A DNA stretch of 29,568 nt from a virus (lineage: Duplodnaviria > Heunggongvirae > Uroviricota > Caudoviricetes). Positions 6,001 to 12,000 of this stretch are shown here, in pieces; the first letter of the stretch is position 1, and every line of letters begins with the position of its first letter. Made by a program: the position numbers. The stretch lies in the IMG/VR virus record IMGVR_UViG_2537562190_000016, one strand, 5' to 3'.

Positions 6001-9000
6001 CCGCCGACAGAAAATGAAAGTAAAGAAAAACAAAAAAGCCGCCAGTGTCACCCACTGACGGCCAACGCCGGGAGCCGTGATTATGGCATTCAGGCTCTGC
6101 TAAAAATGCCAGATAACATTCCGGCCTCCCCCGATTCAGGTTATAAATGACACAATATCTTGACAACATCCGTCACTGTCTGTCAGAAAATGTACTGCCA
6201 TATAGAAGCAACATGTGAAGTACATCTATCCTTTTGAGCCAGCACCTCTCCACCGAAAGTCAGTGCTGGCTGTTTTTTTCCTTAATAAGGCATCTGTAAC
6301 TGAAACAATCCGCATATTGATAATATATTGACAGGCATCATTGCTGTCTGTGAAAAATAAGTCTCTACAAACATATAAGGCCTTTTAGCCAGCGTCTTCT
6401 TTTTCAGGTCAGTCGCTGGCTTTTTTTATTATGCTGCCGGTGCATTTATCTCCAGCATCAGACTTTCTATCTCAACGCCATACGCTGCATTTTTTGTAAC
6501 ATCCGTCAGCGTCAGCGCATTCAGTCCCAGTGTCAGACTGTCTTTTATAACCTGGAATGCCGGGCCAGCCACTCCATTCAGTTTCGGAGTAACCGTGGCA
6601 CTGCCGGCGGTGAACACCAGCTCCAGCGTCTGCCAGTCGTTACCGTAATCGCCGAACTCCCCCAGCTTCGTGTTTCCGGCTTTCCTGTGATGCATCAGAT
6701 TCACTCTGCCGTCAGTGGTCTGAGTGAAGTACGACATCAGGAACGGATTACCGGTACCCGTCATCGCCACACCATCAGGAACGGGAGCATCCGTATACAG
6801 ATAAATCCCCAGCCCGAACTGATTGTTGGTCAGTGCGCCTGACAGGCGGAACTTACAGGTCAGTCTGCCGCCCTGTGTCAGCAGGGTAATTGCGTCATCC
6901 ACCGGATGCGTCAGGGACCAGGTTTTATTGCTCTGCTTGGTGATCTTAAATACACCATCTAACAACTGAATTCCGCCATCCTTAATGCTCCAGCCCTGCG
7001 CAGCAGCCTCTCCGGCTGCCGGCAGCAGGGAGATTGTGCGAACGGACGTATCTGCAGACGGACCCGATGGCGTGTTGCCGCCGGGCGAGGGTTTGATTTC
7101 CGGTGCCTTACCACTGATGAAGGCTGAGGTGCGCCCGGCTGCGTTCAGAATAGCGGTTGCCAGACGATCCGGAATAATGCTCCTGCGCGCCCATGAACTG
7201 AAATGTGTCGGGCGGTTTGATGATACCTGGTTTCCATTCGTTCTCGATGCCGCACCGTAATATCCTGATGCCGGAATATCCGGATCTTCTGCCGGCGCGT
7301 TAGTGGCGGTATTGACGCCGTTACCATCTGTCATGAAGGGCACAAAATAAACGCCCTCACTCTCCCTGTTTTTATACCCGCCGTACACGGTGTCGTACTG
7401 GGTAGCGTATGTATTTTTCCAGTAATACGTCGTGTCACCACAAACCCACGGCACATCTGCAGCACTGCCACCATGGCACTGCGCGTTAAACACGGAGAGG
7501 TCAGCACGAAACTGTGTCAGCATGGCTGTAAACAGCGCAGGTTGCTGTGCGTGGGTGGCGGCGCTCATGTCAAACTCACCCTGCATCCAGCAGACGGCCA
7601 GCAGAACGTTTTTGGGATTTTTCTGCAATGCCGCTTTTGTGCGGGAAATCAGATCCTGATATAACGGCTTGCCCACCCCCCAGCGTGCCGAATCCTGACT
7701 GGCCCCCGTGGACTCGCTGAATGTCCCCTCCGCGCCCTGGGTAAATGCCGAACCACCACGACAGCATGGTACCAGCAGGATCCCCGCGTTATTCGGGATA
7801 TACGGGAGCAGTTTTTTGGCAATATGTAAACCCTGACCGACACAGCCGTACTGCCCTTTGCTCAGGTCAGCCCTCGGATGATTCAGCGTACTCATATCCT
7901 GCACATCATGCAGACAGTGGTCAGCCGGAATAATATCGTTATATCTGCAGGCAGCCCCGCCCGGCGTCACTGTACTGCGGCGCGCCAGCTGTTTAATGCG
8001 CGGATCCGGAGCATCGTATGAATCCGGCAGCGGAAGCCCTTCACCGTAAGCCATGGCATTGGACTGCCCGGCCAGTACGATGACGTAGTACCAATCCGGC
8101 TCAGATGAAGGGCCGACCTGTGGCTCTCCTTCAATAGCCACCGCCTGCATCAGTGTGTACGGCGTAATGGCAACCGGTCCGCCGTATGGCTGCCAGCCCT
8201 CTTTCAGTTTGTGTGTCAGCTTTTCCGCAAGGTCTGACGGCGACGCCGCCCTGACAACATCGTAATGTTTAATCGACATCGAATTTCTCCCGTGTAGAGG
8301 AACAGAGTTAAAAAGCCGGAAGCGGAATCAAATCACAGGATGACCATCTGCCAGTGGCAGGTCATAAAAAAAAGGCTGCGCAATGCGCAGCCAGAACTCA
8401 CAAGGAAAATGATAAAAGGAATAACACTAGTGATGTACGCATGGCGCCTCCCGCTAAGTTCTGCAATGATCAAACAGAACTCGCTACGTGCCCTTAAAAC
8501 TCGATCATTTAGCCCCTCCAAGGAGGATTCACCATGCGGTTGATTTTTTAATAAACAGTAAACAAAAAAGTCAAGAATTATTCATTCTGTTCTTTCATCA
8601 TCGGCCACAGCAATACCACAATGCCGCAGACCAGAGCGCCATCAGTCAGTACCAACATTATCCTGCTGGTGAAATCCATCATCACCATCACTAAAAGCAG
8701 GATCACAACAGCAAGCAGACACAGTTTATAAAACAATGTTCAGAAAACGCATTCAGCATGCCTAAGGTTCTATTCCTACGAATAGCCAACTTGCAACTTA
8801 AAATATTATTTATGCAGCCAATTAAATTCTGGTCCTTACAATATCAACCTGAAGATTCTTATCTTGTGCTGATTGATAAATGACAAACCTTTTACTACCT
8901 GCATTGAAAGAAGTAGACAAAACCAGACAATTATCATAACGAGCAAGAACATAATACCAACCATCATTATAATTAATCATTTCATATTCTTTCTTAAACT

Positions 9001-12000
9001 GTGGTTTGTAATATCCTGTCAGAAATGAAAAAAGCCAAAAATATGCCACAAAAGCAATCATCACAATCTCAAAAAAATGTTTTTTTATAAATGGCTTATC
9101 ATAGAAGCATGATACCGATAAAAATCGCCCATAAGATCTTATCGAAATTGTAACCGCCAGCGCAATCGCTGCTGACAGTAGCAAAAGAGGTACCTGAATC
9201 TTCTGTCTCAATATAGAAAACTCAATAATTGCCGGCACAAACAATAATTCCACAGCAAAATAAAGGCGAAATACATTTAGCTCTTGCATAGAATGTTTTC
9301 TTTTCACTGCGAAAAAGAATACAACACCAATACCCCAACCGATAAGAAATATAGCAATGACGATAACTGCAAAAAATAAACTTCTGGCAACATCATCAAC
9401 ACCTGCACCTACAATCCACCATGGGAAGCCGTAGTAAAAAGAAGTACCCCATCCATAGAAATAAGCACTCCCCCATCCAAGGCATCCCATGTAGGCAATA
9501 AAAAGTGAAGAACTCCTGAGCAGCGCACCATCCTTCATAACCACCCCAATACAAGATGATAACATTGGCTTACAACTCATAACAAAAGCAATTCAATGCC
9601 GTCAAGAGGTTACAGGCTAAAAAAACTCTATTACATAGCAGCCAGCATGTTTACCGTACAAGTACAACTCAGGGCATAAAAAAAACCCACTCGGCAGCGG
9701 GTTTATACATTTTTTACAACATACCAAATTTGCATGAAGTATATGGCTTTTAATCCAGTTTTGCAATATTTTGCTGTAAAAATGCTGCCTTTTGTTTTGA
9801 ACGTGTTCTCGTCACAAGCAATAAAGCATCACTATCAAGCTGTAGAAAAATGTGCTTCATTGCAACCCAGCGTTCAGTAAATGTCTCGGACCAGTTTTTT
9901 GTTGTCACTCCCACCAATGATGCCAGTGTCTGGTATTCATAGGCCTCACGCCCTGCAAGTTCGCTCTTCACATCCTGTGCAGCCAGCCAGATTAACGTCT
10001 TCAGGCGATCCAGTGTCTTACCTGCAATTTTTCTGTTACTTAACAAATCTTTAAACTCGCTCCATGCCCATTGCGTTATGGTGACCTGATGCCCCCATCG
10101 AACGCTTTCGCTGTAACACCAAAGCAACCATGCTTTCTGATGTTCATCGAGAGACAAAACCGCGCGGCGCCATGAAGAGGTTGAGAATTCAACCGGGCTG
10201 ACCAAAGCAATGGATGAACCTTTTGCGTACGACTGCTTACCGGAAGTCGGCGTATTATCCAGCGTAATCATCTTGCCAGTTACCACATCCAGAATGCGCG
10301 GCTTCTTTCGTTTGTATGTACCAGTATCAAATTGTGCATGCTCCTGCCAGGCTTCGAGCTGGCCTTTCGTTGCTCCGTTCAAGTCAGCAGTAGCTGCCAT
10401 AAGTTGCTCACGAACATACTGTAAATATTGGGTATTCATGCAGTAAATCCTTTCTATATTTTGGCATAATTCTTCAACATTCGGTAATCGTTCAAAACCG
10501 AATCGGGGAAACGACATAAGCACAGGAGCCCCCAGCGACAGCGAAGGAGTTCTGATATATAAGACTCAGACATCATTCATTCCCCGGTTCTCCAATATCT
10601 GTTTCACTCATCATCCATAACTACCTGTAATTGCCCCCCTTTTTTTGTAACAGTTCTTATATTGCTATATAGAATAGCCATTACTAATGCATTTAAATTT
10701 AATAAAATAAAAATTATAAAAAACATAAAACACCACGTAAACACACTTAATAAAAACACCGTTACATTAAAAGATAATAAAAACCGCAATAAAAAAAGAA
10801 TAAATCAATTGTCTCACGCAATTATAAAACATCATATTGATTACGCACCTTGTATTACAAACTCATGTATGTAAAATACGCGCACCATTCAAAAAAAAAG
10901 GAAGACAATAACATATGAAAAAAAGTGTCATCGCTGGCGTCTTTATTGCTCTGTCATTTACCACGTGTTCAGCTATCGCGAACAGCCTTGCATTATCATT
11001 AGCAAATGATGATGCAGGGAAGTTTCAACCAATACTTAATGATATTTATGGCAATAAACATGAAAACAGAGATGATTACTCACAAGGCTTATTTCTGGGA
11101 TATAGCCACGATATCTCAGACTCGAGCCAATTATCTCTCCATATTGCGCAAGATATTTACTCTCCATCAGGCAGTAATAAAAGACACAACACAGCTGTAA
11201 CTGGAGACAGAGCTTTTAGTGCATACACTCACACTGGTATTGAATGGAACTCCCTTGCGAATGACTGGATTCGCTATCGATTAGGTACTGACATAGGTGT
11301 TGTTGGCCCCGACGCAGGCGGTCAGAAAGTACAAAATAAAGCTCATGAGATTATTGGGGCAGAAAAATATCATGCATGGGATGATCAAATAGAGAATCGC
11401 TACGGTTATACTGTAAAAGGGATGCTATCCATGACACCAAGTATGGATATTTTAGGTGCTAATGTTGGATTATACCCTGAAGTTTCTGCTGTTACTGGAA
11501 ACTTATTTCAATATGTAGCATATGGCGCAACCATTGCCATTGGTAATGATAAAACCTTCAATTCGGATAATGGCTTTGGTCTGCTGGCTCCCCGTGGTTT
11601 AATGCATATGTCCGATACAAGCGGATTCAAATACAAGATTTTTGCAGGTATGGAAAGACGAGATGTCAATCGCAACTATACTCTCGAAGGAAAAACAATA
11701 CAGACGAAACAAACAACAGTATCGCTAAACAAAACTGTTGATGAATATCAAGTTGGCGCAACAATTGGGTATGCACCTGTAGCCTTCACACTAGCATTTA
11801 ATAAAGTAACATCAGAATTCAAGACAGGGGATGACTATTCATTTATAAATGGAGCAATCACCTTCTTTTTTTAACTGAATTGAATTCAATCAAAATAACA
11901 TAAGTCCAACAAAAACATAAAGTGCGAAATGAATGCCAGCTCCATTTATTTCGCACTATAAAAGATTAAAAGTTGCAATAAAATAATAAAATGACTCAGT

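Follow-up and report, generated by a model that had tools for sequence, protein, structure and literature searches.

The DNA considered here is a 29,568-nucleotide (nt) stretch from a tailed phage (Caudoviricetes; IMG/VR virus record IMGVR_UViG_2537562190_000016), referred to below as the window, and our subject is the interval in its late region between the antiterminator gene Q and the esterase gene nanS-p. The late genes lie on the minus strand, and 'downstream' is used throughout for the direction toward lower coordinates. An initial annotation had likened the order of genes in this region to the late regions of Shiga toxin (Stx)-converting phages and had described the slot that carries the toxin genes in those phages as empty. 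The resemblance in gene order is borne out, but the slot is filled, as the 1.4 kb between 9717 and 8292 form a cargo cassette. All elements listed in the initial annotation are present in the sequence at or near the places assigned to them, although the boundaries of two genes had to be corrected. The features of the interval are the following, with protein lengths given in amino acids (aa).

9750-10439, minus strand: phage-82-type antiterminator Q gene (229 aa from ATG 10439; Pfam PF06323 Phage_antiter_Q, E 1.7e-91)
9738-9766, minus strand: predicted late promoter pR' (-35 TTGCAA at 9766-9761, 17-nt spacer, -10 TATACT at 9743-9738), found by promoter scan and overlapping the Q stop codon
9718-9726, minus strand: extended -10-like element TGGTATGTT, at about +6 to +14 of the early transcribed region
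9675-9704, minus strand: terminator T1, tR'-like (hairpin AAACCCGCU-GCCG-AGUGGGUUU at 9704-9683, followed by U8 to 9675; terminator scan)
9576-9605, minus strand: predicted sigma-70 promoter of the membrane-protein gene (TTGACG, 18 nt, TGt-TATGAG)
8822-9538, minus strand: gene for a 238-aa inner-membrane protein of the TfpB/STM1630 family (Pfam PF27470), with five predicted transmembrane (TM) helices and a C-terminal beta domain of ~55 aa
8578-8736, minus strand: gene for a 52-aa DUF3927 ('TciB-like') two-helix membrane protein (TTG start at 8736; Pfam PF13064, E 3.4e-14, residues 7-50 of 52)
8366-8537, minus strand: small RNA (sRNA) PasD2, 172 nt, identical at 172/172 positions to PasD2 of Escherichia coli E2348/69 (NC_011601.1, 741157-741328), with the seed UGUGAG just upstream of its terminator
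6429-8279, minus strand: nanS-p type sialate O-acetylesterase gene (616 aa; Pfam DUF1737, SASA and DUF6645)

On the minus strand, the Q gene with pR' is followed by the leader and T1, the predicted sigma-70 promoter, the 238-aa gene, the DUF3927 gene, PasD2, nanS-p and the lysis genes. Open reading frames (ORFs), Pfam matches and the annotation of phage 434 place the cassette 3' of Q and the late promoter and 5' of the lysis cassette. We conclude that the stretch from 8279 to 10600 is very probably an accessory-gene ('moron') cassette of a prophage of the type represented by phage 434 and by prophage PP2 of enteropathogenic E. coli (EPEC), which is expressed in the lysogen, occupies the stx slot of a late operon driven by a phage-82-type Q (Q82) and contains a known sRNA.

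Relatives and boundaries of the cassette

The stretch 8279-10600 (minus strand) is 100% identical over 2322 bp to positions 41135-43456 of Escherichia phage 434 (OL657226.1). At least 80% of it is present in 618 complete E. coli genomes, and 643 records match it at an identity of at least 99%, many of them from O26, O103 and other strains of enterohaemorrhagic E. coli (EHEC) or EPEC. Of the first 25 kb of the window, 74% aligns to phage 434 at 99.5% identity, and prophage PP2 of EPEC O127:H6 strain E2348/69 (NC_011601.1, 737-745 kb) matches the window from 12100 to 4194 at 99.5% over 7.9 kb. By these sequence matches, the window is a phage-434-like lambdoid prophage. The architecture of the region is already known, having been publicly sequenced and annotated in phage 434, in E2348/69 and in hundreds of EHEC and EPEC genomes. 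Phage 434 and PP2 carry the same DNA and show no difference of substance within the finding reported here; in PP2, LpxR and the DUF3927 protein have the same protein accessions, and a 247-aa hypothetical protein (WP_001302581.1) is annotated over the membrane-protein gene.

The DNA of the Q gene is 88-90% identical to Q of phage 82 and of PhiR47_2, and the gene is annotated as Q in the phage 434 record and in RefSeq. The site at 9766-9738, to which we assign the role of pR' from its match to promoter elements and its position, is followed closely by TGGTATGTT; related phages have TGATATTTT in its place, and a TGnTATnTT element is conserved together with the Q gene. We take the pR' of phage 82 to have a sigma-70-dependent pause near +25, and by analogy the TGGTATGTT region is a candidate sigma-70 pause and Q-loading signal. 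A Q of family PF06323, an adjoining promoter and a promoter-proximal -10-like element, which together mark a Q82-type module, are all found at this locus. The initial annotation had noted a second minus-strand hairpin with a T-run directly after Q, which we confirm at 9704-9675. Folding of the leader with T1 yields -15.8 kcal/mol (z -3.1), and the site is annotated as a terminator in phage 434. T1 would end transcripts from pR' as a leader RNA of ~57 nt, a counterpart of the 6S RNA of phage lambda. The segment comprising the leader and T1 (9743-9674) also gives a weak full-length match to the Rfam family STnc240 (28 bits, E 0.12), which we treat as a lead only; STnc240 may be a Q-type late-promoter leader RNA of Salmonella prophages.

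Conservation of the Q gene, the promoter and the -10-like block extends to PhiR47_2, PPompW phages and other Q82-type phages, and this homology stops at 9717. A second module begins with the first base of T1, since from 9703 down to ~6383 the sequence is 96-97% identical to phage 2B8, which carries upstream a lambda-type Q, a lambda-type pR' and a degraded version of the T1 hairpin. Homology to Stx phages resumes at 8292, 13 nt short of the ATG of nanS-p and at the ribosome-binding site of this gene. Because Q82-type homology ends at 9717 and Stx-phage homology starts at 8292, we regard the interval between them as a filled cargo slot. When compared with the Q-pR'-qut-tR' module of phages 82 and H-19B, the window is alike in the family of Q, in a promoter lying over the end of Q, in an early -10-like element and in a close terminator. 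It differs in that the terminator belongs to another mosaic module than the promoter (joint at 9717-9703) and in that the leader is only ~57 nt long.

The Stx phages 933W, Sp5 and H-19B share with the window the same slot and the same logic, in which cargo lies between Q, pR' and tR' on one side and nanS-p and the lysis genes on the other, and they have nanS-p, the P21-type holin and the endolysin in common with it. Their cargo is stxAB, whereas that of the window consists of the membrane protein, the DUF3927 protein and PasD2, with no toxin or tRNA genes, and so the window does not belong to the Stx-phage class. The initial annotation had likewise seen no A/B toxin ORFs and no tRNA genes, and scans for ORFs, protein families and tRNAs agree. 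There are no tRNA genes in the whole window, and none of the four ORFs scanned in 8280-9750 matches a toxin family in Pfam, NCBIfam or PHROGs. Between Q and nanS-p (8280-9750) no unassigned ORF of at least 60 aa is left, the small leftover ORFs having been given no explicit toxin-family search. The G+C content of the membrane-protein gene is 36.1%, as against 47.5% for the window, and terminator scanning and folding place terminators at both ends of the cassette.

A natural deletion of the cassette exists. Phage 434B, a mutant whose complete genome has been deposited (OL657227.1), carries DNA of DLP12 (quuD, nmpC::IS5) in place of Q82, the cassette and nanS-p. The crossovers lie in ylcG and, according to the notes of the record, on the right-hand side of a residue marked in the i-spanin gene. 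On the basis of this database record, 434B is a viable phage and the cassette is dispensable for lytic growth. The cassette is therefore accessory, because 434B is viable with Q82, the cassette and nanS-p replaced.

Small RNAs and transcription in uninduced lysogens

The downstream end of the cassette is formed by PasD2. In E2348/69 this sRNA was found by RIL-seq, in which interacting RNAs are ligated and sequenced, was confirmed by Northern analysis and is Hfq-dependent, and its EHEC homologues are known as EcOnc13 (PMC8550237). The seed and the 3' sequence of the window's copy match those in fig. S5 of the same study, and upstream of PasD2 a -35-like hexamer, TTGACT, can be read at 8574-8569. 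The PasD2 terminator consists of a hairpin at 8392-8374, in which 7 of the 8 pairs are G-C, and a U-run that extends to 8366 (-15.9 kcal/mol, z -3.6). The initial annotation had listed a minus-strand terminator at 8366-8392 as part of the late region; the hairpin and its U-run are real, yet they belong to PasD2 and not to the late operon. A role of this hairpin as late-operon terminator or tR' is ruled out by the identity of PasD2 at 172/172 positions, and the tR'-like element is the hairpin at 9704-9675. The distance of ~90 bp given earlier between the terminator and nanS-p holds, as we measure 86 bp to the start codon at 8279.

PasD2 aligns with the Rfam family STnc100 (RF02076) over its full length with a score of 41.4 bits (E 3e-7), which lies below the gathering cutoff of 47 and does not make it a member of the family. 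This score agrees with the view of PasD as a diverged relative of STnc100 (preprint 10.64898/2026.05.13.724894). The same preprint reports that Q and LpxR occur within 10 kb of more than 98% of PasD copies, and that the esterase gene has pasD2 on one side and pasA on the other, ~2170 bp apart. The window has the same neighbours, namely Q, LpxR, the esterase gene and, beyond it, PasA.

A 62-aa 'putative membrane protein' at 8333-8521 (minus strand) in the phage 434 record lies nearly entirely within PasD2 and includes its terminator; the ORF matches no family, is absent from RefSeq and is probably an annotation artefact and not a gene. In its place RefSeq has a pseudogene with a frameshift, at ~8256-8497 of the opposite strand. 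The DUF3927 gene upstream of PasD2 is the second of the corrected genes. The initial annotation had recorded a hydrophobic ORF of 36 aa at ~8577-8690, which is present but corresponds only to the C-terminal part of the 52-aa protein. The protein belongs to PHROG 1470, and the same 52-aa product is annotated in phage 434 and RefSeq. The name 'TciB' is an annotation label only, for which the literature is uninformative and we found no tested function.

The genes and RNAs flanking the cassette, with which the transcript levels below are to be compared, are these.

10915-11874, plus strand: lpxR (lipid A 3'-O-deacylase family; Pfam PF09982, E 6.8e-40), divergent from the ylcG-Q unit
6195-6279, plus strand: sRNA PasA, 85 nt (minor form 6195-6430, 236 nt), 100% identical to PasA of E2348/69; coordinates from table S6 of PMC8550237
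5775-5981, minus strand: P21-type class II holin gene (Pfam PF04971, E 1.2e-32)
5278-5775, minus strand: phage lysozyme gene (Pfam PF00959, E 1.7e-45)
~4844-5281, minus strand: Rz with an embedded Rz1 ORF (ORF calls)

The equivalents of the lysis genes in the phage 434 record are annotated as pinholin, signal-arrest-release (SAR) endolysin, i-spanin and o-spanin. Pfam, ORFs and this record together confirm the Q-like gene, nanS-p, S21-type pinholin, SAR endolysin and Rz/Rz1 of the initial annotation. On the 3' side of Rz, a gene at 4077-4694 (minus strand) takes the position of the Rha-family regulator of PP2, where phage 434 has a Bor/Iss-like lipoprotein gene; because of this difference we consider the window a mosaic of 434 and PP2 rather than phage 434 itself. 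At the other end, a 29-codon fragment of a lambda-type Q at 12000-12089 (minus strand) has its stop just before lpxR. This fragment is a scar left when the segment lpxR-ylcG-Q82-cargo entered by recombination.

Transcript levels are available for E2348/69 grown without prophage induction, as mean normalised counts from DESeq2 (table S2 of PMC8550237). The count is 2936 for lpxR, 69 for Q, 226 for the membrane-protein gene (E2348C_0686), 37 for the DUF3927 gene, 11017 for pasD2, 102 for nanS-p and 3879 for pasA, as against 3.5 for the holin gene and 3.2 for the endolysin gene (PMC8550237). The lysogen thus transcribes the cargo and keeps the lysis genes silent, which fits a promoter of its own behind T1, and the transcription is consistent with the promoter predicted at 9605-9576. 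The initial annotation had expected both ORFs to be expressed with the late genes. They do lie downstream of the Q-dependent late promoter, and by the logic of the operon they would be transcribed when Q acts, but they are not expressed only late, given a count of 226 beside 3.5 for the holin gene in uninduced cells.

The sRNAs may act on the cargo itself. PasA lies between nanS-p and the holin gene in antisense orientation to the late operon, its longer form overlaps the nanS-p stop codon, and it is named EcOnc51/52 in EHEC. RIL-seq recovered 57 chimeras between the mRNA of E2348C_0686, the membrane-protein gene, and PasA (odds ratio 2.39, p 0.022), and lpxR is among the RIL-seq targets of both PasD2 and the core sRNA MgrR (PMC8550237). 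The PasA contact site on the membrane-protein mRNA corresponds to 9376-9406 (minus strand) of the window, PasA being encoded ~3 kb downstream, and a site complementary to the PasD2 seed lies within lpxR at 11069-11096. The sRNAs of the prophage may in this way regulate its own cargo.

We infer the promoter assignments and the read-through of the cassette under Q, as well as the role of the membrane protein that is considered below. In the lysogen, the Q82-type late promoter (~9766-9738) would fire constitutively, and its transcripts would end at T1 (9704-9675). Behind T1 the cassette would be transcribed independently, with the promoter at 9605-9576 driving the 238-aa gene and probably also the 52-aa DUF3927 gene, and a further promoter-like site driving the Hfq-dependent PasD2, which would end at the hairpin 8392-8374. 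Upon induction, Q-modified RNA polymerase would continue past T1, across the cassette and beyond the PasD2 terminator, and enter nanS-p and the lysis genes. It would have to cross both ORFs because these lie between the late promoter and the lysis genes, and the cargo would thereby also be boosted late, as stx is. Considered as a whole, the cassette has the marks of a moron in its position, in its own predicted promoter and terminator together with transcription in the lysogen, in its deviant base composition and mosaic joints, and in its dispensability.

The TfpB/STM1630 protein and its genomic company

The initial annotation described an AT-rich gene for a 252-aa polytopic membrane protein at 8822-9580. 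The base composition and the polytopic character stand, but the length and start do not. Translation most likely begins at ATG 9538 and yields 238 aa, because full-length homologues all have 236-240 aa with a start codon equivalent to ATG 9538, and because ATG 9580 lies in the -10 hexamer predicted for the promoter of the gene itself. The -35 hexamer and the TGtTATG block of that promoter are kept in a copy on plasmids of enterotoxigenic E. coli (ETEC), even though the coding DNA is only ~75% identical.

Sequence comparison makes this ORF a real gene. A search of 5.8 billion proteins gives 108 clusters of homologues at 90% identity; every one is from Enterobacterales and carries a precomputed assignment to PF27470 'TfpB', and length and motifs are conserved. 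In five orthologues (45-68% identity) the frame and the length are kept, and substitutions are most frequent at codon position 3, followed by position 1 and then position 2. The reading offered in the initial annotation had been made to depend on coding conservation in homologous prophages and on there being no clear match to a housekeeping transporter; frame, length and an excess of third-position substitutions are conserved, and no such match was found. The top homologue is a 247-aa protein that is 100% identical to the query over the full length of the query, and RefSeq names the protein 'STM1630 family protein'. At 50% identity, 72 representatives are present among 1.84 billion proteins. 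Intact ORFs of 236-240 aa occur in Escherichia, Citrobacter, Salmonella, Yersinia and Klebsiella, and distant TfpB members in Neisseria, Pasteurellaceae and Haemophilus ducreyi. Many clusters of the protein search are partial, truncated or frameshifted members of the family being common. A scan of genome contigs with strict search patterns returned 6 loci. A 100% identical membrane protein is also encoded on JAIITD010000172.1, a 3-kb contig binned as a Veillonella metagenome-assembled genome, which is most likely mis-binned E. coli prophage DNA.

The protein has the architecture of the TfpB family as judged from alignments, AlphaFold2 modelling and hydropathy, with an aromatic and glycine-rich N-terminal motif, ~5 TM helices and a C-terminal beta domain. 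It is predicted to have its N terminus inside and a small periplasmic beta domain. The AlphaFold2 model, built from 45 sequences including distant ones, reached a predicted local distance difference test (pLDDT) score of 80.6 and a predicted template modelling score of 0.74; an earlier run with 26 close homologues had given a pLDDT of 58 and was unusable. In the wider family there are no conserved catalytic polar residues, and G175 is the sole invariant residue. The initial annotation had proposed profile (hidden Markov model) and structure-prediction searches with the 252-aa protein. These led to the family PF27470, but they gave no structural relative in PDB or BFVD and no functional clue. 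Every Foldseek match of the model to PDB had E > 0.9, with faint SH3-like matches to the C-terminal domain only, and against BFVD there was no match at E <= 0.001, the best having E 0.05 over 66 columns. A sequence-profile search of PDB found no match, PHROG 1521, to which the protein belongs, is of unknown function, and papers found under the name 'TfpB' deal with chemistry or with a type IV pilus motor or class of pilus that has no relation to this protein. The Pfam name may derive from tfpB, an ORF in the pilin inversion region of Moraxella. PADLOC defence models gave no match at E <= 0.1 to the 252-aa, 52-aa and 62-aa ORFs, and in searches of Pfam and PHROGs the ORFs of the cassette matched no holin, antiholin, spanin or toxin family.

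The surroundings of TfpB-family genes in the various replicons are listed here.

Yersinia and E. coli prophages: directly after Q
Stx position of Sp5-like phages: Q-methylase-tRNAs-STnc100-TfpB-LpxR(-PmrD)-nanS-p
Other prophages: Q82-TfpB-methylase-tRNAs-STnc100-nanS-p
ETEC plasmids: divergent from the heat-labile enterotoxin genes eltAB, with STb nearby
Klebsiella: near STb, a two-partner secretion pair and an AraC regulator
Salmonella chromosome: divergent from sseJ (STM1630)
Citrobacter rodentium, non-phage: syntenic chromosomal locus, with lpxR replacing sseJ
H. ducreyi: between rpoH and mqo

In the Sp5/933W-like late regions (contigs L019-L021, 3700-9800), the methylase and tRNA genes are followed by STnc100, the TfpB homologue, lpxR, in one strain a pmrD-like gene, and then nanS-p. 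On the ETEC plasmid contigs (L010-L013, 6001-6714), a homologue of 59% identity is divergent from eltAB and surrounded by STb and insertion sequence elements, and its promoter region resembles that of the window; this suggests that part of a lambdoid late region is contained in the LT-I locus. The lpxR gene adjoins the TfpB gene in three different arrangements, one of them, in C. rodentium, outside any phage. A linkage of DUF3927 to TfpB genes was not found elsewhere.

The Salmonella Typhimurium homologue, STM1630, is 46% identical over its full length and has the same 238-aa architecture. It is independently transcribed, as the gene in the window would be, and it belongs to a virulence-associated expression set, but it is located in the chromosome beside sseJ and not in a prophage late region. 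In a 123-gene table that includes genes of Salmonella pathogenicity island 2, drawn from transcription profiling of avirulent regulator mutants, STM1630 shares a row ('Not in COGs') with pagD, ugtL, pqaA and lpxO (PMC2639726). The gene is induced in macrophages in Salmonella and was picked for study from macrophage transcriptome data. In strain D23580 its expression is lower during macrophage infection, and it is inactivated there by two single-nucleotide polymorphisms in the -10 box.

Possible roles of the membrane protein

For the 238-aa protein we tentatively place first, though as less likely than not, a non-enzymatic envelope factor that benefits the lysogen and is perhaps tied to outer-membrane and lipid A remodelling of the LpxR type. 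After it we rank superinfection exclusion, then a part in lysis or a toxin, and then debris, the remaining probability being left to some other function. A wider proposal, more speculative than the first, sees in the TfpB/STM1630 proteins a novel type of envelope factor whose genes accompany those for toxins, effectors and lipid A remodelling (the stx slot, eltAB, STb, sseJ, lpxR and pmrD). Such a factor might act with LpxR or on the release of vesicles or toxin, and it might sit in a self-contained circuit in which PasA and PasD2 pair with the prophage's own membrane-protein and lpxR mRNAs. Several observations weigh against these proposals and against the account of the cassette given above. 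LpxR is adjacent in only 3 of ~10 contexts, and this adjacency may partly reflect common descent. The only reported phenotype of an STM1630 deletion is hypermotility, seen in one screen, and the deletion causes no defect in macrophage replication. The membrane protein has no match in the local Pfam, NCBIfam and PADLOC libraries, the local copy of Pfam not including the PF27470 model. The RNA-seq strain differs from that of the window, its counts are not corrected for gene length, and reads that also map to related prophages may contribute to them. The putative promoters are consensus matches whose backing is conservation, and promoter- and terminator-like sites are no more numerous in the region than chance would give. 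In the case of terminators, 3 sites were found where 2.2 are expected; the weight of the hairpins at 8392-8374 and 9704-9683 comes from their context and not from their number.

Many prophage cargo membrane proteins act in exclusion, and the 238-aa protein could block DNA entry by other phages or abort their infection. Its gene is prophage cargo that the lysogen expresses without induction, the protein is predicted to reside in the inner membrane with a small periplasmic domain, and the wider family, with G175 as its one invariant residue, lacks the conserved polar residues of a catalyst. We nevertheless hold an anti-phage function to be rather unlikely. PADLOC provides no match, copies of the gene reside on enterotoxin plasmids, and stable chromosomal orthologues exist outside prophages, as at STM1630 beside sseJ, at the syntenic locus of C. 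rodentium and between rpoH and mqo in H. ducreyi. In addition, the Salmonella homologue is listed with virulence-regulon genes and is induced in macrophages.

The initial annotation took the two ORFs for late-operon products that modulate lysis or are toxins released at lysis. Their location between pR' and the lysis cassette, which is the position of stx, agrees with such a role, as does the co-transcription that would be unavoidable when Q acts, and both products are small hydrophobic or polytopic membrane proteins in the manner of holins and antiholins. We judge this reading very improbable, since the count for the membrane-protein gene in uninduced cells is ~65 times that of the holin gene, the gene has a conserved predicted promoter of its own, homologues occur where there are no lysis genes, on plasmids and at chromosomal loci outside phages, and 434B lyses and plates without both ORFs. 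Neither Pfam nor PHROGs reveals a holin, antiholin, spanin or toxin relationship, and a secreted toxin is implausible for an integral membrane protein. Equally poor, and last in our ranking, are the prospects of the view that the cassette is evolutionary debris, in which hitch-hiking ORFs without a current function were kept between essential modules. The dispensability of the cassette for phage growth, the frequency of broken family members, and the lambda-Q fragment and pseudogene that flank the region all speak for debris. Against it stand the intact 236-240-aa ORFs, which at 45-68% identity across five genera show an excess of third-position substitutions, the 100% conservation of the stretch in hundreds of genomes, and measurable transcription together with the RIL-seq contacts to PasA.

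The outcome of this analysis is in part a clarification, in that the key hairpin of the region can be assigned to a published sRNA and a likely annotation error in the phage 434 record is identified. The gap that remains concerns a conserved membrane protein, expressed in the lysogen, that recurs beside genes for AB5 toxins, effectors and lipid A deacylases. The pair of 434 and 434B, a natural knockout, and the well-studied EPEC strain make the question of its role easily testable. If true, a role of this protein in the envelope or in exclusion would add one lysogenic-conversion function to the prophages of pathogenic E. coli.

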